Positions 34,304-43,920 of a stretch of DNA of 64,000 nucleotides are shown one piece after another. Source of the DNA: Acidobacteriota bacterium (GTDB taxonomy: Bacteria > Acidobacteriota > Vicinamibacteria > Vicinamibacterales > 2-12-FULL-66-21); NCBI GenBank assembly GCA_046726015.1, contig JBKOZS010000085.1, forward strand, positions 9,953 to 73,952, read 5' to 3'. Made by a program: the position numbers and the translations under genes. A model generated the notes under the pieces. The model saw only the letters and a list, made by a program, of their open reading frames with translations. It searched no databases and was not told the origin of the DNA. The first letter of the stretch is position 1; each line of letters opens with the position of its first letter.

Positions 34304-34792
34304 ATGCGCACGCTCCCTGCGGCGCTCACGTCGCTTGTACTCGGGTTGAGCCTGGCCACCTCGGACGCCAGTGCGGCCGAGACAGCGACGGCGAGCGTCA
34401 CCGTAAACGTCCATGTCGCGTCGAGGACGTCGCTCAAGGTTTCGAGCCAGGTCCTCCGCTTCGATGTGGTCGAGCCTGGCGGCGAGGCGACCGCCTCAAT
34501 CGACTTCACCGCCGCCGCGCGAGTACCAGCGGGCGCTGACGTCGTCTTGACCGTTGAGCCGATCCGGCAGACGAACCATCAAGGGCTCGCGGCGCAGGCA
34601 GTGTCTTCGTCCACCACGTTTGCCGGCCAGGGTGAGGGCATGCTGGCGGGCGCTATCGATGCGCGAGCCGCGTCGGTGGCCGGACGCTGGTGCGGCAGCG
34701 GACGGCGTCAGGGACGAATCCTCTTCAAGATGCGCGCGAACGCGGCAGGGCGCTACATGATGCCCGTGCGCTTCGTACTGTCCACCCCGTAG
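34304..34792 (+). CDS. secreted fibre-subunit-like protein, divergent fourth paralogue (P4)
   Basis: Signal peptide. Shares 'VTVNVHVA' N-terminal strand, 'GRWCGSG' and the C-terminal 'GRYMMPVRFVLSTP' with the three proteins at 38189-39698. Confidence 0.6.
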   Translation: MRTLPAALTSLVLGLSLATSDASAAETATASVTVNVHVASRTSLKVSSQVLRFDVVEPGGEATASIDFTAAARVPAGADVVLTVEPIRQTNHQGLAAQAVSSSTTFAGQGEGMLAGAIDARAASVAGRWCGSGRRQGRILFKMRANAAGRYMMPVRFVLSTP

Positions 34793-34801
34793 TTTCGAGA
34801 A

Positions 34802-37438
34802 CTATCTCGCTTGCGTGATCCACGGTTTGTTGGTGGTCCGCGCTTCCAACTGTGCCGCGATCTGCTCGGCCGCCACGCGTGTTGGATATCGACCAACGCG
34901 AATCCGATACGGCGCATTCGGATCCGTTGACGGCGGTTCGAGCAGATACGCGGCGAAGCCGGCGGTTTTCAATTCCTCGACGATCGCGCGTGCACGCAAG
35001 GCGTCGTTCAACGCGGCGATCTGAATCGTGTAAAGCCCTGCGGTCGTGACGGGCCGGTGCGCGGACGCGGCGATGGGCGGAGCATTCGGTGTCGGCGACG
35101 CCTTCGCAGCAACGATTGGCGGATTCGCTGCTGGCTGCGCCTTGGCGCCGATCTTCGGTGGGAACACCTTCCGCACTTCGGGACGTTTCTCGATTGCGAC
35201 CAGGAACGTGACGCTCGGTTGCGGTTGCTCGCGCGTCACCGGTGTCGCGCGCTCATTGCCACCTACGACAGTCGATCCTTCCGGCAACGACTCCTTCAGC
35301 AACTCGACCCGGTGATCGCCGCTCCGAACCGCATCGAAGCGGAATCGTCCCTTTCGCGCCAACACCGATCGCATTCCCCCGTCCAGCGTGAGCACGGCCC
35401 CTTCAACCGGAGGTTCCTCCGGATCGATCTCCCCGTTCTTGTTTGAATCCTCTATCACGCGTCCCTGGATGCTGCCGAGCGGAATGAGACCGAACACCAC
35501 GCGCCGTGTATCGCCGCGCCCGATCTCGACGAGGAGGTCGGTTGCGGCAGGCGCATCGAAATCGACCGGAAGGGCATTGAGGTCGAGGAACACGTGCTGT
35601 GCGCCTGCGGGGACGTTGAGAAATGCGAACGCCCCATCGCGCGCGGTGGTCACGTGCGCCAGCGTGCCGACCGCAACAGGAATGCCCTCGAGCGTTCCCT
35701 CCCCTGGATCGGGCTGTCCATTCGCATTCCAGTCTGCGAACACGCTGCCCACGATCGAGCCGGACCCGCGCGTGGTTCGGGCGCCGATCGATGATCTGGT
35801 TGCAACTCTCGTCGTTCCGGTCGGGATCGAGTGCACGACGCGAAACGTCGATCGCGCGAGCCAGGCGTACCTCTCAGCGGGAAATCCAGCGGGTGCGCGA
35901 TCCAGGTACATGTTGAAGCCAATCGTCGTTCGCGGCGCGATCTGCCCGTTCAGGCCCACGTTCAGAGCGTTCCGCGGAGTGAGCACGTCCGTGGTGAGAT
36001 CGTGGTTACGGCTTGCCGTCCCTTCAATGCGAAAAAAGAGTCCTTCCCGGAACACCTGCTGCTGGCCGCCCGCCGTCAGCTGCAGGAACGTGCTGGCACT
36101 GCCTGATGCGGCGTGCTGGGCGATCACCGACGCCACGCCGAACAGCTGCGTCCGCCTGGACAGATTCAGGTTTGCCTGGCCTGACGTGTAGTGCTGCGTG
36201 AACGTCGACGACGAGAACGAAGAGTCGACGTTGTCGCGGCGCGAGTAGCGGGCGAACGCCGTCATCTTGCCGAGCGTCGACTGCAGTTCCGCCGAGATGA
36301 CGCCGGTGTCACTCGTCGTGGGCGCACCAGTGGTCTCGGTCGGCAGGGCCGGCCGGATCGGCCTCGATACGCGTCCGCCATCTTCAAGACGGAGCGAGAC
36401 GCTCGATTGCGTACCGACTTGAAGGCGCAGTCCGCCAAAGCCGCGATCCGTGCTCGCCTGCGGCCGCAGCAGGGATACGCCGGAGGGACGGATGTTGGTG
36501 TCGAGTGATTCCCATCCGGCAAACACGCGCACGCGAGTCAGGAGGTCGTACTCGCCGGCCGCGAACAGACCGCTGCGATCCTGCAGCGACGCGTTGAGCA
36601 CCGGGAACTCACCCGGAGAAAAGTGCGACTGATTGACTTGTAACCAGCCGCGCGACAGGAGGAAGTGGGCGCCGGCGAGATACGACGCGTCATTCACCGG
36701 TTTCAACGCGCCGGTCGCGCGGTAGCGCACGAACGATCCATCGGCGGCAACATGAATCGACGGCGTCAACACCAGGCGCGTGCCGCCCCCCGCCTGCTCA
36801 CTTGCATCGATCGTCCGCGCGAACTCCTTCAAGTTCGACGTGCGAACGCGCGCGCCGCGCGCGTTCAGCTGCAGCCGCGGGTTGTGCTGGTAGCTGCTGC
36901 GCGCGAATGCAAGCGACTGTCCCAGCGTGTCTGGATCGGTTCCAAAGATGTTGCGCCACGCCGTTGTCCGTCCGCCAACGACCTGTGTTGTGGTTTTCTG
37001 AGTCTTCGCCGTGACCGCCGCGCCGTTCAACGTCAGCGACGCCGCGTTCAGATTCGAGAACTGGTAGTCGCCGAGTGCAGGCTGCGAGTAGAGATCCCCT
37101 CCCTCGAACGTCCACGAGATGCCACGCGCTTTCGCATCTCTCACGGCGAATGACGCACGTCCGAGGTGCAGCTCGTTGCCTCGACGTGTGCCACGGACTT
37201 CGAGTTGCAGCTCGCCGAAGCGGGACTGCGGCTGGATCAAGGAGACGCCGAAATCCGGTTCGAACGCATTTTCGGTGCCCCGCCGCTCTGAATCGCCCTG
37301 AACGACCTGCGTCTGACTGGAGAGCTGAATCGAGCCCTGTTGGCGTGCTTCGGCCGGCGCCGCGACCAGCAGGACGAGGACCGACGCGGCCGGCGCGCGC
37401 ACGCGCTCAGGAAACCTTGAGCGTGGTCTCGCCGACAA
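34802..37438 (-). CDS. predicted outer-membrane beta-barrel protein with two Cna-B/CarboxypepD_reg-like beta-sandwich domains and a C-terminal SPOR domain (usher candidate)
   Basis: Signal peptide. About 540 aa of amphipathic beta-strand-like sequence. 'GSIVGSVFADWNANGQPDPGEGTLEGIPV' and 'GSIQGRVIEDSNKNGEIDPEEPPVEGAVL' repeats. C-terminus 'YTIQIAALNDALRARAIVEELKTAGFAAYL...YRIRVGRYPTRVAAEQIAAQL'. Alternative start GTG 37402. Confidence 0.7.
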   Translation of the reverse strand: MSARPRSRFPERVRAPAASVLVLLVAAPAEARQQGSIQLSSQTQVVQGDSERRGTENAFEPDFGVSLIQPQSRFGELQLEVRGTRRGNELHLGRASFAVRDAKARGISWTFEGGDLYSQPALGDYQFSNLNAASLTLNGAAVTAKTQKTTTQVVGGRTTAWRNIFGTDPDTLGQSLAFARSSYQHNPRLQLNARGARVRTSNLKEFARTIDASEQAGGGTRLVLTPSIHVAADGSFVRYRATGALKPVNDASYLAGAHFLLSRGWLQVNQSHFSPGEFPVLNASLQDRSGLFAAGEYDLLTRVRVFAGWESLDTNIRPSGVSLLRPQASTDRGFGGLRLQVGTQSSVSLRLEDGGRVSRPIRPALPTETTGAPTTSDTGVISAELQSTLGKMTAFARYSRRDNVDSSFSSSTFTQHYTSGQANLNLSRRTQLFGVASVIAQHAASGSASTFLQLTAGGQQQVFREGLFFRIEGTASRNHDLTTDVLTPRNALNVGLNGQIAPRTTIGFNMYLDRAPAGFPAERYAWLARSTFRVVHSIPTGTTRVATRSSIGARTTRGSGSIVGSVFADWNANGQPDPGEGTLEGIPVAVGTLAHVTTARDGAFAFLNVPAGAQHVFLDLNALPVDFDAPAATDLLVEIGRGDTRRVVFGLIPLGSIQGRVIEDSNKNGEIDPEEPPVEGAVLTLDGGMRSVLARKGRFRFDAVRSGDHRVELLKESLPEGSTVVGGNERATPVTREQPQPSVTFLVAIEKRPEVRKVFPPKIGAKAQPAANPPIVAAKASPTPNAPPIAASAHRPVTTAGLYTIQIAALNDALRARAIVEELKTAGFAAYLLEPPSTDPNAPYRIRVGRYPTRVAAEQIAAQLEARTTNKPWITQAR

Positions 37439-38249
37439 TCAACGCGGGCAGTCCCACGTCGATCTTGACCTCCACGCGATAGTCGCCGGCGGGGAGAGAC
37501 GGCTTGTCTGGATCGATCGCCGGGATGGGAACCTCGCGTTCGGACTCCGGCAGCACCGGCACGTCGGGAACGAGTGACTGGCTGACCGCGGCGCCGCTCT
37601 TGTCGTAGACCGTGAGCGTGCCGCGTGTGCGAACCGTTCGGCGGCTGGTGTTCTTCAACACCGCGACGATTTGCGTCGGTTGATCGGGCACTACGCGCGT
37701 GAGCAGATCGGTGAGGTCCACGGCGGCGGCGGGCTCACCCACGTTCGCATAGATCAGCGTGCCGATGCGGCTCCGTACGACGACGCTGCGCCCGCGCGCC
37801 AGGGGATCACTCGCTGGGGCGAAGTCGAACAGGATGCTGCTGCGATACCCTGCGGGCTCCGCGCTGCTGGGAATCGCCAACGTGAATCGCACCGTAGCAT
37901 CCTTACCAGGATCGACCACCTGCTCGGGCGGCGCGATCCGCATCCATCCCGAAGCCGAGTACCGCGTATCCGTGGGTTCTTCGAACTGCGGCGAACCACT
38001 GCGCGAGAGGTGCCAGTCCGAGATCGTCGCGCGCACGCGCACCGGCTGCGTGCCCGAGTTGCTGACGGTAATCGCCTGCGTCGTTGTTCCGCCGGGCGCC
38101 GACTGCAGCTCTACGCGCAATGGCGAGACCTCCACCGAGGTCTGTCCGGCCGCCGGGACAGAGACAAGCAGCAGCGAAATGGCCGCTCCTACGGCGCGGT
38201 GAGCGTGAAAACGATGCTCTGCGTGTACGTGCCGGCGTTGTAGTTCCAT
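37407..38249 (-). CDS. two-domain Ig-like periplasmic protein (PapD-like chaperone candidate)
   Basis: Start trimmed to ATG 38249 (signal '...AVGAAISLLLVSVPAAGQT'). 'VEVSPLRVELQ...ITVSNSGTQPVRVRATISDW' resembles the chaperone N-domain pattern. A second beta-sandwich-like half follows. Confidence 0.6.
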   Translation of the reverse strand: MELQRRHVHAEHRFHAHRAVGAAISLLLVSVPAAGQTSVEVSPLRVELQSAPGGTTTQAITVSNSGTQPVRVRATISDWHLSRSGSPQFEEPTDTRYSASGWMRIAPPEQVVDPGKDATVRFTLAIPSSAEPAGYRSSILFDFAPASDPLARGRSVVVRSRIGTLIYANVGEPAAAVDLTDLLTRVVPDQPTQIVAVLKNTSRRTVRTRGTLTVYDKSGAAVSQSLVPDVPVLPESEREVPIPAIDPDKPSLPAGDYRVEVKIDVGLPALIVGETTLKVS

Positions 38250-38665
38250 GAATTCGCCAAGCGAAAGGTTACCGAGCCGTCCCTGGCCGGATTCACGTTC
38301 CCGGTTCCAGCGGCGACGCGTTGGGCCACGGTTTTGCTGAGAGTGCCGTTCTGGAACGGTGGCGCAGGCGTAGCCGTCCACGTAACATTCGTAATATCGA
38401 CCGTTTCGCTGCTTGCAATTAGGTCGCCGTTCGCCAGCACCGTGAGTTGCCACGGGGATGCCCCCGGATTCTGCCGAACACGAACACTGACAATGATTGG
38501 GGGCGCCAGGATCGTCGGACTGACATCCGGGTCTGCCGACGGAAACGTAATCGATGTGGGCGAGATTGTCAGATCGAGTCTCTGCGCCGCGGCATGCGCG
38601 GGCCACAGCAGGATGACTGTCCACACACACGCGCGGAGCAGCTTGCGTTGGTTGCTTGCAATCAT
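38189..38665 (-). CDS. secreted fibre-subunit-like protein P3 (no N-terminal extension)
   Basis: ATGA overlap with the P2 stop. Signal 'LLWPAHAAA'. 'ITFPSADPDVSP', 'VTWTATPAPPFQNGTLSK', C-terminus 'GTYTQSIVFTLTAP'. Confidence 0.65.
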   Translation of the reverse strand: MIASNQRKLLRACVWTVILLWPAHAAAQRLDLTISPTSITFPSADPDVSPTILAPPIIVSVRVRQNPGASPWQLTVLANGDLIASSETVDITNVTWTATPAPPFQNGTLSKTVAQRVAAGTGNVNPARDGSVTFRLANSWNYNAGTYTQSIVFTLTAP

Positions 38666-39162
38666 GGGGAGGTCAGCGTGTAGGTGAGCGTCGCCGAGTA
38701 GGTTCCCGTCGCATACGTCCACAGGTTGCGGAACATCAACTGCTGCGTGCCCGTGCGGATGCCAGAACCGGTCCACCGAGCGACCGTGACAGGTGACGTC
38801 TTGCTGAGCGTGCCTGGCTGAAAGCCCGCGCCGGTTGCGGTCCACGTGATCGCCGACGCGGAGATCACGTCGATTCCGGACCGCAGGTCGTCGCTTCCGA
38901 CGACCGTGAGGATGACCTGCGACCCCGCGGTCGCGCGCGATTTCGCGGTGATGATGATCGGCCCGCTCAGCGGAGCCACCTGTGGCGCGGCATCGGGGTC
39001 CGCATCTGGAAACGACACGGTCGCGGCCGAGAGCGTCAACTTTGCAAGCGGCCCTATGTCCGCCGACAGCGTGACGGTCGATGTCTGGGCCTCCGCCGGC
39101 GTCGCGAACGCGGCCAAGGCCCAGACGATCGGAGCGAGTGCAAGATGACGCGACGTGAGCAT
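38662..39162 (-). CDS. secreted fibre-subunit-like protein P2
   Basis: Signal 'ALAAFATPAEA'. 'VSFPDADPDAAP', 'ITWTATGAGFQPGTLSK', 'WTGSG', C-terminus 'GTYSATLTYTLTSP'. Confidence 0.7.
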   Translation of the reverse strand: MLTSRHLALAPIVWALAAFATPAEAQTSTVTLSADIGPLAKLTLSAATVSFPDADPDAAPQVAPLSGPIIITAKSRATAGSQVILTVVGSDDLRSGIDVISASAITWTATGAGFQPGTLSKTSPVTVARWTGSGIRTGTQQLMFRNLWTYATGTYSATLTYTLTSP

Positions 39163-39194
39163 GCCGGAGCCGTGGATCCGGCCCTGCTTATCGG

Positions 39195-39698
39195 TTACGG
39201 CGCGGTCAGCGTGTAGGTGACAGTCGTACCGTAAGAGCCGGTGTTATACGCCCACGTGTTCTGGAGCGAGTAGGTATGCATGCCGGAATGGTTGCCCGAT
39301 CCGGTCCAGCTCCCAGCCGGGGTTGCTGTCGTGGCGAACGGCGTCAACCCATTGAAGCCGGCGCCGGACCCCAAATAACTCAGGGCGCCAATCGCGATGG
39401 TGCTGCCGCCGCCACCCGTGAAATCTGGCGCACTGACGTCCAGCGTAACGGTCGACAAACGCCCCGTGCGCGCTTTGACATCGACACTAAACGGTGTCGC
39501 GTTCAGCGTCGGCGACACGTCGGGATCGGCGTCGAGAAAATCAACCGATGCGGCGCCAAGCGCCAGTTTGGCCCTCGCGTTCACGGTGACGTTGACCGGC
39601 ATGCTTGCGTTTGCGGTCGCCGCCTGCGCGAATGCGTCACCCGTTAGAAGAAGAACTGCTGCTGTCGCGACTGCTCCCGTCCAAACTGCCTTCATCAT
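39195..39698 (-). CDS. secreted fibre-subunit-like protein P1 (first, likely major)
   Basis: RBS AGAGGGGG. Signal 'LLLTGDAFAQA'. 'VDFLDADPDVSP', 'WTGSG', C-terminus 'GSYGTTVTYTLTAP'. Confidence 0.7.
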   Translation of the reverse strand: MMKAVWTGAVATAAVLLLTGDAFAQAATANASMPVNVTVNARAKLALGAASVDFLDADPDVSPTLNATPFSVDVKARTGRLSTVTLDVSAPDFTGGGGSTIAIGALSYLGSGAGFNGLTPFATTATPAGSWTGSGNHSGMHTYSLQNTWAYNTGSYGTTVTYTLTAP

Positions 39699-39745
39699 GA
39701 CTCGCCCCCTCTGGAATCCTCCGCGTTCGCGGAAATGGTTCGTAG

Positions 39746-39955
39746 TTACACCGACGATGTCGAGAATGCGCGCTGGCGTTCGAGCCAGCGATCGAGATCC
39801 GCGTGCCGGAACCGCCACTGACGGCCAATGCGAACGGCGGGGAGCTCGCCGCTGCGGATCAGCCGGTAAATCGTCCGCGGAGTGATCTTCAAATAGCTCA
39901 GGACTTCCTCGGTCGTGAGGAAGGCCTCCATTTCGCGCATCGGGTCGTTGAACAT
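39746..39955 (-). CDS. small excisionase/MerR-type helix-turn-helix DNA-binding protein (69 aa)
   Basis: 'FLTTEEVLSYLKITPRTIYRLIRSGELPAVRIGRQWRFRHADLDRWLE'. Close paralogue of the N-terminal domain of the adjacent response regulator. Confidence 0.75.
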   Translation of the reverse strand: MFNDPMREMEAFLTTEEVLSYLKITPRTIYRLIRSGELPAVRIGRQWRFRHADLDRWLERQRAFSTSSV

Positions 39956-39973
39956 GGCGGTCTCTCGTGTCAG

Positions 39974-40024
39974 TCGTTGTTGCTCATATGGTGGCTAACA
40001 AGGAACTCTATATGACAACAACGA
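39974..40024. promoter_or_regulatory. 15/16-nt inverted repeat (TCGTTGTTGCTCATAT-N20-ATATGACAACAACGA) in the leader of the fibre operon
   Basis: Read directly. One-nucleotide bulge. Lies between the predicted promoter and the start codon at 39955. Confidence 0.6.
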
Positions 40025-40058
40025 GCTACAATGTAGCTCCGCCGTATCCAATAGTCAA
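40023..40058 (-). promoter_or_regulatory. sigma-70-like promoter (TTGACT-N17-TACATT) with a perfect 17-bp palindrome GAGCTACA-A-TGTAGCTC over the -10
   Basis: -35 is the reverse complement of 40053-40058, -10 of 40030-40035. Palindrome at 40023-40039. The region is visibly AT-richer than its surroundings. Confidence 0.55.
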
Positions 40059-40147
40059 GCCCCCTTTGCGCCGGAGCAGGCCCCGGTCGTTCGGGCGATA
40101 ACCCAATAACCGTGTAATCGTGAGAAAAGCCGCGAAAATACGGGGTG

Positions 40148-40732
40148 CTATTCGCCCAGGGCCTTGGCAGCCTTGGCCAGGACCATGGGGACGCGGAACG
40201 GCTTGGTCAGATAGCCGGACACTCCAAGGTTCAGCGCGTCGATAGCGCTGGCTTCAGTGGAGTAACCGGTAATGATGATGACCGGGAGATCGGCCTTGAG
40301 CCGCCGCGCCTCGCGAATCACCGTCAGGCCGTCAACGCCGGGCATTTTGAGGTCGGTGATGAGCAGGTCGTACGGGATGATCCGCAGCCGCTCGAGCGCG
40401 GTGCGGCCGTCCGGGGCGAGATCCACGTCGTATTCCGCAAGGGCCAGCGTTTTTGCCAGCAAATCACGAATGCTTGCCTCGTCGTCCACGACCAGGACGC
40501 GCGGCCGCGCTTCAGCGGCGGCGGGGGCGCGCTGCGGGGCCGGCTGCGCACGCACGGTACGAGGACGCTGACTTTCCAGCCAGGCGTCGATGTCGCGCTT
40601 CCGAAAGCGCCACTGGCGCCCGACCCGTACCGCCGGAATCTTTCCGGCCTTGATCAGCCGGTAGACCGTTCGCAGGTTGACCTGGAGGTACTCAAGTACC
40701 TCCTCGGTCGTCAGAAAGCTTTCATCGATCAT
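40148..40732 (-). CDS. response regulator with inverted architecture: N-terminal excisionase-type HTH, C-terminal receiver
   Basis: 'FLTTEEVLEYLQVNLRTVYRLIKAGKIPAVRVGRQWRFRKRDIDAWLE', then 'VLVVDDEASIRDLL...DLLITDLKMPGVDG...PVIIITGY...YLTKPF'. Start trimmed to Met 40732. Confidence 0.8.
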   Translation of the reverse strand: MIDESFLTTEEVLEYLQVNLRTVYRLIKAGKIPAVRVGRQWRFRKRDIDAWLESQRPRTVRAQPAPQRAPAAAEARPRVLVVDDEASIRDLLAKTLALAEYDVDLAPDGRTALERLRIIPYDLLITDLKMPGVDGLTVIREARRLKADLPVIIITGYSTEASAIDALNLGVSGYLTKPFRVPMVLAKAAKALGE

Positions 40733-42296
40733 GACCCGTGGGACCCATTGATACTTTACCACCAACCTCTGCCGAGGGTAGATCGAGCCTGAATTCCGCC
40801 CCACCCCCAACGGAATTTGACGCGGTAATCGTCCCCCCGTGCTCCTGCACGATCCCGTAAGTGATTGCCAGGCCAAGGCCCGTGCCTTTGCCCACTTCTT
40901 TTGTGGTGAAGAAGGGGTCGAAGATCCGCGGCAATACATCGGAAGGAATTCCAGGACCGCTGTCGCGCACGATCAGTGAGACCTGCTCGCGCGAAGCGTC
41001 GCTGGATGAGGCCACTGCGATCCGCCGTGGTCCGTTGCCGTCGACGACTGCATGCTCGGCGTTGATCACGATGTTCAGCAGCGCCTGCTGCAGCAGGAGC
41101 GGATCGCCAAGCACGAATGGAAGGTCCGCCCCCTGGTCTCGCGTCACTTCGATGTTGGCCCGTTGCAGGCTTGCCCGGCGGCTCGCGAGTACCCGTGTCA
41201 GCACGCGATCGACCTGCAGCCGCCGTCGCGCCATGCGGCGCGATCCAGTGAAGACGAGGAGATTGCGCACGATCTTCGCGGCGCGATCCGCGTCCTGGTA
41301 AATCTGCTTCAGCTCCTTGCGCACCGGCCGCGCCGCTTCGGTGAGTTCGATCAACAGTTCGAGATGACCGAGCACGCCTTGCAGCGGATTGTTCATCTCG
41401 TGCGCGATGCCGGCGACAAACTGCCCGAGTGAGGCGAGTTTTTCCGATTGGGCGAGTCGCCCGCGCAGCGCCGCGCGTTCCGCTTCGAGGCGTGTCTGTC
41501 GCGTGATGTCGCGCGCCACGAGCACGCGCCCGACTTCGTTGCCTTCCTGGTTGATGAGCGGCGTGGCGGTGAGAAGAAATGTCCCACCGAGGAGCGCATC
41601 TTCGATCGGGTTGGCGCCGGTTGGCGCGAGGGCCGGGTCGGCGGACGCAATCCACGCCGCGGTTTCCGGCGCCACGAAATCCGCGACCGCGCGCTGCATC
41701 AGGTCCGCGCGCGGCACGCCGACGCGCGCGGAGAACGCCTCGTTGGTCTGCACGATCCGCAGATCGCGATCCATGACGGCCACGAGGTCGACCAGCGAAT
41801 TGAACGTGTCTTCGAGGAGCCGGCGCTGCCGAAGCACTTCGTCGAGCAACTGAATGTTCTCGATGCCGACGGATAGCTGGCGCCCGAGTTCGTGCGCGAA
41901 CTCGATCGCCTGCTCGCAGCTGATGCGAGCACCGTCGAGCCCGTCGATGACCACCGTCCCCAGGGCGCGACGCCAGCCGCGGAGCGGCGTAACCAGCTCG
42001 GTACCGAAGTACTGCGGGCGTTCGACCCGTAAGCCGCGGGCAGCCGGATGCGCCGGATCGTCGGTTGGCAGGCGGATGCCAAGTCCGAGTGCCGGATCTG
42101 ACGAGGCCGTGAGCTCCAGTTCCCGGGCCCTGCGGTCGTGCACCCAAATGTCGGTGCGCCGCGCCCCGATCAGATCACAAATTTGGTGTGCGACCGTTTC
42201 CAGCGCCGTCGCGAGGTTGAGGGTCGCGGACACACCGCGCGAGAACAGCAGCGGGATATCCCGCAGCGCCTCGTGCAGGGAAGGGTCTAAGCTCAT
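40722..42296 (-). CDS. cytoplasmic sensor histidine kinase (GAF-PAS-HisKA-HATPase_c)
   Basis: H-box '[14 protein letters not shown]', 'NIVINAEHA', 'DSGPGI', '[13 protein letters not shown]'. No transmembrane segment seen. Confidence 0.85.
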
Positions 42297-42379
42297 GGGT
42301 GGGGGTATTTTATCCGCGTTCGCCCCCGCTGAACATGACGGCGGCTACGGCGAGAAGCCGCTTCGTGGCGGCGAGAGTG

Positions 42380-42438
42380 GGGGTCCAGTGGCAAGATCGG
42401 GGTCCAGTGGCAAGATCGGGGTCCAGTGGCAAGATCGG
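42380..42438. repeat. perfect 3 x 19-bp tandem repeat (GGGGTCCAGTGGCAAGATC) plus a 2-nt partial unit
   Basis: Units at 42380-42398, 42399-42417 and 42418-42436. Lies between the divergent kinase (start 42296) and the ECF sigma gene (start 42481). Confidence 0.9.
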
Positions 42439-42480
42439 TAAAGCCAAAAGGTTCAATGGCCTGTCTAAACTAACGATAAG

Positions 42481-43140
42481 GTGAGCGCCCTGGGCATGCC
42501 GTCGACCGACGAAGAGCTGGTCGCCCGATCGATGGGGGGCGACCTCGACAGCTTCAACCAGCTTGTCCTGCGCTGGGAGCGGCCGATTTACGCCCTCGCG
42601 TACAGGGTTATCGGCCGCGAGGAAGATGCGCGCGACGTCTGCCAGGAGACCTTTCTCCGCGCGTTCCGCGCGCTGAAGGGATTCAAGGGGCAGGCGAAAT
42701 TCTCATCGTGGCTGTATCGCATCGCCTTGAACTTGTGCCGCGATTGGATCCGCCGCGAGCGCCGGCAGCCCATCGCGCAAGCCCCCGAAGGGGTCGACCT
42801 CATCGACCTCGCGTCGGAATCGACGCCGTCCGAATCGGTCGAAGAGCTCGTCGCACGGCGTGAGATCAGCCGCGCGGTCGCCCGAGCGATGGCGGATTTA
42901 CCGGACGAACAGCGCACCGCGATCATTCTGAAGGAGTACCACGGGCTGACGTTCCAGGAGATTGCGGATCTCCTGGATTGCCCGTTGAGCACAGTGAAGA
43001 CACGGTTGTACCAAGGCCTGACCGTACTGCGGAAGCAACTCGCACGGGAAGGTATGCAAGGCTCGGCGCGATCCGCGGATCATGCGGACCGCGGCGATCG
43101 CACGGATCAGATTCGTGTGATCCGTGAGATCCGTGGTTGA
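42481..43140 (+). CDS. ECF-type RNA polymerase sigma factor
   Basis: 'ARDVCQETFLRAFRAL...FSSWLYRIALNLCRDWIR', 'GLTFQEIADLLDCPLSTVKTRLYQG'. GTG start, or ATG at 42496. Confidence 0.85.
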   Translation: MSALGMPSTDEELVARSMGGDLDSFNQLVLRWERPIYALAYRVIGREEDARDVCQETFLRAFRALKGFKGQAKFSSWLYRIALNLCRDWIRRERRQPIAQAPEGVDLIDLASESTPSESVEELVARREISRAVARAMADLPDEQRTAIILKEYHGLTFQEIADLLDCPLSTVKTRLYQGLTVLRKQLAREGMQGSARSADHADRGDRTDQIRVIREIRG

Positions 43141-43152
43141 TGAACAGGGACT

Positions 43153-43920
43153 ATGACGATGTGTGACAAGGAACGAATCCTCTCGTACGTATACGAGGAG
43201 CTCGATCGGACAGAGCGCGCGCAGATGGAAGCGCATCTGAAAACGTGCGCCGAGTGCCGCGACGAAGTGGCGGGACTGCGCAGCGTGCGCGTGGATCTCG
43301 CGACGTGGACGCCGTCGCAGCCGGAGTTTGGTTTCCACATCGTGCGCGATCGCAAGCCGACGTGGCGACAGTGGTGGACGCCCGCGTTTGCGCTCGCCGC
43401 GGCCGCGGTGCTCGTGCTCGCCGTCGCGTCAGCCATCGCGAACGTCGACGTCACGTATGGCAACCAAGGCTTCAGCGTGCGCACCGGCTGGGGACGAGCG
43501 ACCACGACCGTCCAGCGTGCTGCCGAGCCGCCGACCGGAAAGCCCGAGCCGACGTCCACACCAACAGCGAGCGAGGTGCGTGAACTGTACGCCGCGCTTG
43601 ATTCGCGGCTTCGTCAGCTCGAAGCTGCGCCCCGTCAGTTGCCGATGCAGCAGGCGGCGTTCAAGAGCGTGCGGCAATCCGATGATGCGATTCTTCGGCG
43701 CGTGCACGATCTGCTGGCACAGAGCGAGTCGAAGCAGCAGAAGGAGCTCGCGCTGCGGATCGCGCAGGTGATTCGCGATGTCGACGCGCAACGGGTTGCG
43801 GATCTCAATCGCATTCAGCAGGGCCTCGGACGGATCGATGCGATGACCACGTACGAAGCGCAGACGCATCGCGATCTCACGAATTACATCCTGGCGTCGT
43901 CACGCCAGCAGCAGAAGTAG
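43153..43920 (+). CDS. anti-sigma factor (zf-HC2 type) with one transmembrane segment
   Basis: 'HLKTCAECRDEVAGL'. TM segment 'WWTPAFALAAAAVLVLAVASAIA'. Confidence 0.7.
   Translation: MTMCDKERILSYVYEELDRTERAQMEAHLKTCAECRDEVAGLRSVRVDLATWTPSQPEFGFHIVRDRKPTWRQWWTPAFALAAAAVLVLAVASAIANVDVTYGNQGFSVRTGWGRATTTVQRAAEPPTGKPEPTSTPTASEVRELYAALDSRLRQLEAAPRQLPMQQAAFKSVRQSDDAILRRVHDLLAQSESKQQKELALRIAQVIRDVDAQRVADLNRIQQGLGRIDAMTTYEAQTHRDLTNYILASSRQQQK

Follow-up and report, generated by a model that had tools for sequence, protein, structure and literature searches.

BldC of Streptomyces, a MerR-like winged helix-turn-helix (wHTH) protein of 68 aa (PDB 6AMA/6AMK), resembles in size the small protein described here, which we call sHTH, and like it stands alone (PMC5859096). 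HnoC of Shewanella oneidensis is a MerR-type response regulator (Plate & Marletta 2013, cited in PMC9938897 and PMC8738867) that is reported to repress from sites overlapping the -10 element and the start site and to be released by phosphorylation. The searchable literature yielded no experimental study of response regulators that have HTH_17 (excisionase-type) as their output domain, and DigR of Myxococcus, considered as an HTH-first precedent, was ruled out since its paper describes a C-terminal HTH_Xre. Vicinamibacterales, which are among the commonest soil lineages, have many regulators combining HTH_17 with a receiver, and these are extremely conserved there.

The window, i.e. the whole 64,000-nt stretch of DNA that was analysed, comes from an uncultured Vicinamibacterales (Acidobacteriota) genome, that of a soil acidobacterium. 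Within it, a response regulator of this type is followed by sHTH, a free-standing relative of its DNA-binding domain, which is the first cistron of a pilus operon whose predicted promoter is accompanied by a conserved putative operator.

The two-component pair and sHTH

The kinase, the regulator and sHTH all lie on the minus strand at the places that the initial annotation had given them. The regulator (194 aa; 40148-40732) carries an HTH_17 winged helix at its N-terminus (residues 6-56, nt 40565-40717; Pfam 75.5 bits, cutoff 27; TIGR01764 67.3 bits, cutoff 28.8) and a Response_reg receiver at its C-terminus (residues 79-184, nt 40181-40498; PF00072, 96.7 bits), so that the HTH-first, receiver-last order read initially agrees with the Pfam domain positions. 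Homologues number at least 8,000 proteins, and both PF12728 and PF00072 were found on every one of the best 120. The receiver has the acidic pocket, phospho-acceptor Asp, Thr and Lys of a two-component response regulator (D83, D84, D127, T155 and K177, invariant or near-invariant among 35 homologues). In the AlphaFold model (pLDDT 80.7) the receiver part adopts a CheY-like fold (rmsd 1.3-2.3 A vs solved receivers), to which the PDB matches of the regulator are restricted, while the N-terminal part (pLDDT 84-89) shows the helix-helix-hairpin-helix arrangement of HTH_17 (H9-16, H20-28, E34-37, E40-44, H45-54), and the two are joined by a disordered Pro/Ala linker of ~20 residues (residues 58-73 at pLDDT <50). 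The HTH core is near-invariant (pN 0.010). As judged from Pfam and the regulator model, neither the regulator nor sHTH has the C-terminal coiled coil and effector domain of classical MerR activators.

The stop codon of the kinase gene (524 aa; 40722-42296) overlaps the start of the regulator gene by 11 nt, and the two are translationally coupled. The kinase is a cytoplasmic sensor histidine kinase (PAS_4 at residues 165-268, HisKA with H299, HATPase_c) in which no transmembrane segment was detected (max KD19 1.43). It had been described as a GAF-PAS kinase; the PAS domain stands, whereas GAF is too firm a call for residues ~28-147, which give a weak GAF-like signal below the Pfam cutoffs (GAF_3 E 0.003, GAF E 0.0095), likewise flagged weak in the orthologues. 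The architecture is probably GAF-PAS. Divergently, on the plus strand, Pfam identifies an ECF sigma factor (42481-43140) and a zf-HC2 anti-sigma factor (43153-43920), genes found upstream of the regulator in 77/80 loci, with the contig ending first in the other 3. Other neighbours are an ABC-F ATPase, a second kinase/NtrC pair and a permease.

sHTH (69 aa; 39746-39955, minus strand) consists of an HTH_17 winged helix (residues 12-62, nt 39770-39922; Pfam 78.3 bits, cutoff 27; TIGR01764 66.7 bits, cutoff 28.8) with no further Pfam domain. That this small ORF is a real gene, as initially supposed, is borne out by its conservation: it is intact in 16 related loci (including the window, L081-L082 and L084-L086) and on the 988-nt contig L083, its core gives dN/dS values against the window of 0.04-0.23 with a single value of 0.43, and JGI also calls a gene there. 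By these measures sHTH is under purifying selection. Two loci that have both lost the pilus genes (L006 vs L025) still give a dN/dS of 0.16 for sHTH, suggesting a role beyond the operon itself.

BLASTP aligns the regulator HTH and sHTH with 36/53 identical residues (68%; 87% positives, E 3e-27), confirming a match that had been made by eye, and in a library of 1.8 billion proteins the two are each other's nearest relatives. sHTH matches 21,273 cluster representatives at E<=1e-3 and 364 at 1e-10, and almost all single-domain matches among its best 150 are sHTH-type small proteins or regulator-type HTHs; on this comparison the similarity is well above the family background. The nucleotide identity of the two HTH cores is 65% and synonymous differences approach saturation (pS 0.69), so that the initial description of sHTH as a copy of the regulator HTH stands as paralogy and not as recent duplication. 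As the alignments indicate, sHTH is an old paralogue of the regulator HTH and evolves faster than it, at ~15x its non-synonymous rate. Five core positions are consistently class-specific, two of which adjoin or fall in the recognition helix, and the differences include L/P at the recognition-helix N-cap and a K-to-E charge reversal, so identical DNA specificity of the two proteins is not assured. The BldC contact residues K26, T27, T29, R30, W31, H46, R47 and R48 correspond to R, T, Y, R, L, Q, W and R in the regulator HTH and sHTH alike, and the sole exchange at a contact position is at the equivalent of K33 (R in one class, K in the other). As most such residues are conserved family-wide, this identity is weak evidence for shared specificity.

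The pilus operon, its promoter and its distribution

Downstream of sHTH lie three paralogous secreted subunit genes with signal-peptide-like N-termini, F1 (39195-39698), F2 (38662-39162) and F3 (38189-38665), all on the minus strand, which cross-match at 30-45% identity and match no Pfam or NCBIfam family; the start of F1, first placed at 39701, is corrected to the ATG at 39698. They are followed on the same strand by a PapD-like periplasmic chaperone (37407-38243), identified from its AlphaFold model (pLDDT 79), which Foldseek aligns with CsuC, YadV, Caf1M, DraB, FimC and PapD (E 1e-9 to 1e-10, probability 1.00). The predicted structure is thus that of the two-domain PapD-like chaperone of a chaperone-usher system. 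The Pfam PapD profiles gave no match at E 0.01, and JGI labels the homologues 'P pilus assembly chaperone PapD'. The usher position is occupied by an 878-aa outer-membrane protein (34802-37438, minus strand), SdrD_B-like with a C-terminal SPOR domain and conserved in the cassette, on which Pfam profiles detect only SdrD_B, CarboxypepD_reg and SPOR and not the usher family PF00577. A fourth subunit-like gene (34304-34792, plus strand) is convergent with the operon and is found at the same place in L001, L005, L013, L014, L021 and L081-L086.

The spacer between the regulator and sHTH (39956-40147) had been proposed as the regulatory region, which fits the presence there of a predicted promoter of the sigma-70 type and of an operator-like box with strong conservation. 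The promoter (40030-40058, minus strand) has a -35 TTGACT (40053-40058) separated by 17 nt from a -10 TACATT (40030-40035), a spacing outside the 19-20 bp of promoters controlled by classical MerR activators. It is the one promoter-like site within 39100-42600, and in 29 related loci both of its elements keep their position amid diverging flanks. The putative operator is a 13-nt box, TGTCATATAGAGT (40005-40017, minus strand; extended conservation 40003-40023), which starts 12 nt downstream of the -10 and spans roughly +5 to +18. Each of 29 loci, and L086 as well, has a single copy of it, with strand and position unchanged. Promoter and box together are present in 15/15 fibre loci of the genome scan and also in L081, L082, L084 and L086, with or without sHTH; in the fibre locus L085 the box was not found at <=2 mismatches. 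A position weight matrix scores real sites at 24-39 vs -14 to 7 in cassette-free loci, and a degenerate box in the latter was ruled out because these scores are at background. No copy of the box that would suggest autoregulation was found in the divergent region between the ECF and kinase genes at <=2 mismatches, nor were direct repeats, as expected of BldC-style sites, found in 39690-40150.

The kinase-regulator pair is core to Vicinamibacterales (80/80 loci; kinase present in 70/80), while the pilus operon, a chaperone-usher-like cassette, and sHTH are accessory. The 75 informative loci comprise 56 with neither pilus genes nor sHTH, 9 with pilus genes only, 6 with both and 4 with sHTH only. 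In the species-level scan sHTH is the first cistron in 6/15 (~40%) of the cassette-bearing genomes, always between the regulator and the subunit genes, and the gene order is identical in 5 more loci from metagenomes. The initial annotation placed sHTH at the head of the fibre operon, which is confirmed, the first subunit gene using the same promoter directly in genomes that lack sHTH. Conservation of the two HTH proteins as a pair in orthologous loci, which it named as a check, holds in part: the layout recurs in relatives, but sHTH is optional and 9 genomes have the fibre operon and the box alone. The fibre cassette lies directly downstream of the regulator in 20/20 cassettes. A regulator dedicated to the fibre genes is contradicted by the 56/75 loci that keep the regulator, with its near-invariant HTH, without fibre genes, sHTH or box.

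A proposed mechanism and its alternatives

Tentatively, and on comparative sequence evidence, we propose that sHTH, a paralogue lacking the receiver, binds the box and autoregulates its own operon, and that it shares this site with the phosphorylatable regulator or, as hypothesised initially, contests it. The box would then be the operator of the sHTH/pilus promoter, and a position just past the predicted start of transcription is one that repressors typically use; HnoC, with its reported repression sites over the -10 and the start site, offers a parallel. Both proteins are predicted to bind it because the BldC DNA-reading residues are kept in both. The affinity of the regulator would be set by phosphorylation, most likely via receiver-mediated dimerisation given the disordered linker in the AlphaFold model, and sHTH would bind independently of the signal. 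Since sHTH would be transcribed from the promoter that it binds, it would autoregulate negatively, and this autoregulation would cap pilus expression or give it a threshold. Because genomes without the box conserve the regulator too, it must have other targets as well, and the near-invariance of its HTH across genomes without the box points to something else as its main target. The box is asymmetric and single, a poor fit to a dimerised regulator, and it could be owned by sHTH alone or by an unrelated factor; since 9 genomes have the box without sHTH, its function, whatever that may be, does not require sHTH.

It is possible, if rather doubtful, that sHTH acts alone at the box as a local PapB-like pilus regulator and that the two-component system controls other genes, in which case the cassette merely landed or survived beside the regulator and the likeness of the two HTHs would reflect ancestry and not a shared target. 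Chaperone-usher operons that open with the gene of a small regulator are well known: the PapB-type regulators (papB, sfaB, daaA) are small DNA-binding proteins encoded by the first gene before the major subunit, and they autoregulate their operon. Conservation of the regulator without cassette or box, the class-specific substitutions near the recognition helix (L/P and K/E included) and the faster non-synonymous evolution of sHTH would all be in keeping with such a division of labour. However, box and promoter are equally conserved in the 9 fibre loci without sHTH, which requires another reader there, and the regulator is the sole nearby HTH of that type. The constant placement of all 20 fibre cassettes directly downstream of the regulator, and the continued selection on sHTH where the pilus genes have been lost, also argue against a purely local role.

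As the box lies in the predicted transcribed region, 12 nt after the -10, it might instead be a 5' leader RNA signal (stability, processing or translation), or else the site of an unrelated global factor, with sHTH and the regulator acting elsewhere; we consider this unlikely. Part of the box region recurs in inverted form as ATATGAGCAACAACGA (39974-39989, minus strand). This segment can pair with 40010-40024 as RNA or DNA, and in the window the box can thereby form a 15-bp hairpin with the complement lying downstream of it (RNA fold -17.3 kcal/mol, z -2.4). A second conserved hairpin lies ahead of the first subunit gene, as a stem-loop (39719-39734, minus strand) between the sHTH stop and that gene in the window and as a related hairpin, CTTCCGC/GCGGAAGG, in 8 other loci. 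Yet the downstream complement is significant in 6/30 loci and in no fibre-only locus, one hairpin arm is invariant in sequence and not covarying, and the spacer matches no Rfam family at gathering or at E<=1. A conserved RNA structure in the spacer was rejected on account of the missing Rfam match and the few loci with a significant hairpin. An upstream ORF in the leaders of fibre-only loci was also rejected, as neither start codon nor frame is conserved.

We think it improbable, too, that sHTH is a 'microprotein' which joins the winged helix of the regulator in a head-to-tail assembly on the box, or else caps that helix there. A phosphorylation-dependent regulator would in that case be turned into a mixed nucleoprotein complex with its output set by the sHTH:regulator ratio, and the retention of sHTH after loss of the pilus genes would also be explained.

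Very little speaks for sHTH being an excisionase or recombination directionality factor, or the MAD1 of a defence island, with a mobile pilus cassette: the HTH_17/TIGR01764 'excisionase', PHROG excisionase-family and mad1 matches and the patchy presence of the cassette would fit, but the regulator's own HTH gives the same matches, sHTH scores 55 bits against a MAD1 equivalog cutoff of 80, PADLOC reports the mad1 domain match alone, on both HTHs, with no partner genes, the neighbourhood, in which all neighbours are accounted for, has no integrase, recombinase or MADS partner genes, and the cassette always occupies one chromosomal site where decayed remnants point to loss and not mobility.

Significance and comparison with known systems

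The locus offers a handle for study, with a promoter, a 13-nt candidate operator and one DNA-binding domain in two natural versions, with and without a phosphorylation switch, and the genomes that have only one component or the other serve as natural 'deletion mutants'. If the proposed sharing of the site by sHTH and the regulator is correct, this would be a simple case in which the duplicated DNA-binding domain of a regulator becomes a signal-independent brake or decoy, and the mode of action of BldC would be extended to the control of Gram-negative surface fibres.

Among PDB sequences, sHTH matches BldC best (E 0.0016; ~30% identical), and both are alike in having no dimerisation, coiled-coil or effector domain. 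sHTH falls outside the BldC subfamily NF033787, scoring 20.9 bits (E 2.5e-4), below the cutoff of 77. Unlike sHTH, BldC is a pleiotropic developmental regulator without paralogy to an adjacent response regulator, and it binds direct repeats in a cooperative head-to-tail manner, whereas no such repeats are evident in the box. HnoC resembles the regulator in carrying a MerR-type DNA-binding domain on a response regulator; its sites are reported to be palindromic, while the box is asymmetric. We know of no receiver-less paralogue beside hnoC. PhyR, the alphaproteobacterial general stress regulator, also has its output domain N-terminal and its receiver C-terminal and is linked to an ECF sigma/anti-sigma pair, but where the regulator has a DNA-binding wHTH as output, PhyR has a sigma-like domain, which titrates an anti-sigma factor. 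The fold of PapB is unrelated to that of sHTH, and Pap control is a matter of Dam/Lrp phase variation and not of a two-component system. GerE has a LuxR-type HTH, a fold different from that of sHTH, and to our knowledge it is neither encoded beside a full-length paralogue nor thought to compete with one; it is nevertheless a small free-standing factor made of the output-domain type of a response-regulator family, in its case NarL/FixJ, as sHTH is here.

Kinase, response regulator and upstream region

All genes of the kinase, regulator and fibre module lie on the minus strand. The kinase (524 aa, 40722-42296) carries PAS_4, HisKA and HATPase_c domains with H299 as the H-box histidine, and, having no transmembrane segments, is cytoplasmic. 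The initial annotation had described it as a GAF-PAS kinase; the PAS domain was borne out by the PAS_4 match, while GAF signals over residues 28-147 were sub-threshold only (GAF_3, E 0.003; GAF, E 0.0095), and the kinase orthologues carry the same weak GAF flag. Its stop codon overlaps the start of the response regulator (194 aa, 40148-40732) by 11 nt. The regulator has the HTH-first, receiver-last order previously proposed, with HTH_17 at residues 6-56 and a canonical receiver at 79-184 in which D83, D84, D127, T155 and K177 are conserved. In its AlphaFold model (pLDDT 80.7) a winged helix is connected to a CheY-like domain by a Pro/Ala linker (residues 58-73) that is disordered. PDB matches of the regulator cover the receiver alone, hence the PDB contains no structure of the HTH_17-receiver architecture.

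Next to the module lie divergently oriented ECF sigma and anti-sigma genes. The divergent region separating the ECF sigma and kinase genes holds a perfect 19-bp tandem repeat of 3.1 copies (GGGGTCCAGTGGCAAGATC, 42380-42438); unrelated short tandem arrays occupy the same place in related loci L001, L050 and L052, and one lies upstream of the small HTH gene in L022. Most ECF-kinase intergenic regions contain a conserved CGTCTAA with CCGACTG about 15 nt upstream on the sigma-gene strand, which looks like an ECF-type autoregulated promoter, and a conserved TTTACC-N17-TAGAAT that looks like the kinase promoter; in the window this region takes a variant form.

The free-standing HTH protein and its origin

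Downstream of the regulator by 192 nt starts a 69-aa protein, here sHTH (39746-39955, minus strand), whose sole domain is HTH_17 (residues 12-62) and whose nearest solved relative is BldC (6AMA, E 0.0016). Alignment of the two HTHs (BLASTP, 36/53 identities, E 3e-27) upheld the proposal that sHTH duplicates only this part of the regulator, and no further HTH_17-like segments occur in the 64-kb window. A search of 1.84 billion cluster representatives matched 21,273 proteins at E<=1e-3 and only 364 at E<=1e-10. The best 150 comprise 28 sHTH-type small proteins, 82 regulator-type proteins (receiver detectable in 25, many of the rest being fragments), 13 intermediates and 27 without the core motif, mainly tandem multi-HTH_17 proteins scoring via several repeats; within this set the sHTH and regulator HTH classes are therefore mutual nearest neighbours in sequence space. 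The duplication is real but old, the cores being 65% identical in nucleotides (pS 0.69). Over the 46-residue core, mean identity is 77% among sHTHs, 97% among regulators and 66% between the classes. The regulator HTH is extremely constrained (median pN 0.010 at pS 0.59), and non-synonymous evolution of sHTH is about 15 times faster. The latter is still under selection, with dN/dS values against the window copy of 0.04-0.23 and one of 0.43.

In the BldC-DNA structure, K26 and R30 contact bases, T27, T29, W31 and K33 contact phosphates, and H46, R47 and R48 contact the minor groove (PMC5859096). The aligned equivalents are R, T, Y, R, L, Q, W and R in both classes; at the K33 equivalent sHTH has R and the regulator K. 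This points weakly to similar predicted DNA specificity, since HTH_17 domains commonly carry most of these contact residues. Five positions are consistently class-specific, including P (sHTH) versus L (regulator) at the recognition-helix N-cap and, just after it, E/D versus K/R.

The fibre operon, its promoter and a candidate operator

The three subunit genes downstream are paralogues belonging to no database family. The chaperone, whose homologues JGI names PapD-like, is modelled as a two-domain beta-sandwich (pLDDT 79) matching CsuC, YadV, Caf1M, DraB, FimC, CupB2 and PapD (E 1e-9 to 1e-10). In the usher position is an 878-aa outer-membrane protein (34802-37438, minus strand) with SdrD_B-like, CarboxypepD_reg-like and C-terminal SPOR (peptidoglycan-binding) domains and no match to the usher profile, a putative atypical assembly platform. 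The name fibre operon is thus reasonable, the system being chaperone-usher-like with an atypical outer-membrane component. A fourth subunit-like gene (34304-34792, plus strand) is convergent with the operon; its position is conserved in related cassettes, and it is sometimes the last remaining pilus gene (L025). The first subunit ORF (39195-39818) is open up to a GTG at 39818, from which it would run into sHTH; the conserved start, giving a signal peptide, is the ATG at 39698 (MMKAVW), 47 nt from sHTH. Within that gap is a stem-loop (39719-39734, minus strand; type CTTCCGC / GCGGAAGG), which might act in mRNA processing or stability and so uncouple regulator from subunit levels. Folded as a single sequence, it does not reach significance (z -0.2); as in the window, a stem-loop of this type stands 20-25 nt ahead of the start of the first subunit gene in L005, L009, L013, L020, L023, L031, L039 (with altered pairs) and L048.

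The sole sigma-70-like site in 39100-42600 is TTGACT-17-TACATT (40058-40030, minus strand). Across 29 related loci, aligned on a 13-mer noticed beforehand, the -35 and -10 hold their positions amid diverged flanks, and the 13-mer itself, TGTCATATAGAGT (the box; 40005-40017, minus strand, with conservation extending over 40003-40023), is nearly invariant, starting 12 nt past the -10. With up to 2 mismatches allowed, a single copy of the box, always on the same strand, is present in 15/15 fibre loci of the genome scan regardless of sHTH, in all sHTH-only loci, in six decayed loci and in L081, L082, L084 and L086; at that threshold none was found in the fibre locus L085. Cassette-free loci score at background (PWM -14 to 7; true sites 24-39), and the sigma-kinase intergenic region has no copy. 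Loci lacking sHTH have the same promoter and box 60-90 nt upstream of the first subunit gene, making sHTH the true first cistron of the operon, as had been supposed, inserted between promoter and first subunit gene.

The box region of the window can pair with a downstream complement (39974-39989; -17.3 kcal/mol, z -2.4), as an RNA element might. This partner is significant in only 6/30 loci and in no fibre-only locus, the box arm is invariant and lacks covariation, and Rfam has no match for the region; we therefore favour a candidate protein-binding site. Its predicted position just past the start is typical of repression, as has been reported for the MerR-type regulator HnoC, whose sites overlap the -10 and the start (PMC9938897).

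Distribution and regulatory models

A scan of species-representative genomes recovered 80 loci with the regulator (76-98% identity), all in Vicinamibacterales-type MAGs. The ECF pair is present in 77, wherever the contig extends that far, and the kinase in 70; in the other ten (L053, L066, L067, L070-L073, L076, L079, L080) an orphan regulator lies directly beside the ECF sigma gene. L053 (19079-20236) and L076 (18234-19412, minus strand) also hold, about 9 kb away, a second kinase and HTH_17-receiver regulator (~28% identical over residues 4-190), so within these genomes the architecture exists as a family of paralogues. Of the 75 loci whose downstream sequence runs to 1.5 kb or more, 56 have neither sHTH nor fibre genes, and there an ABC-F ATPase and another kinase/NtrC pair come after the regulator; nine have the fibre operon without sHTH, six have both, and four have sHTH alone. 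The sHTH-regulator pair is thus optional among orthologous loci. Five more loci (L081, L082, L084, L085, L086), found via more divergent sHTH or chaperone homologues, have exactly the gene order of the window. Judging by its remnants, among them a box-only promoter, outer-membrane gene fragments and a single subunit gene on the reverse strand, the cassette is ancestral and has more probably been lost repeatedly than moved about; no integrase or transposase lies near the module in the window.

The regulator is a core regulator, probably with many targets, and not a dedicated fibre switch; sHTH is an optional extra in a cassette bearing the operator-like box. We tentatively prefer a model in which sHTH would bind the candidate box and autoregulate the fibre operon, and the regulator would use the same box when its phosphorylation state allows, sHTH then acting as a signal-independent brake or competitor. 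The main rival, which we consider somewhat less likely than this model, makes sHTH a purely local PapB-like regulator and the two-component system a mere neighbour. After loss of the pilus genes, sHTH is still under purifying selection (L006 versus L025, dN/dS 0.16), which hints at a role beyond the fibre operon, consistent with interplay with the regulator.

Our literature search found neither experimental work on HTH_17-receiver regulators nor a published case of a response regulator in tandem with a paralogue of its DNA-binding domain that lacks the receiver. Every single part of the module has precedent: BldC for a small winged helix like sHTH, HnoC for a MerR-type response regulator, GerE for a stand-alone output domain, PapB for a small regulator heading a pilus operon and PhyR for an output-first regulator beside an ECF sigma factor.
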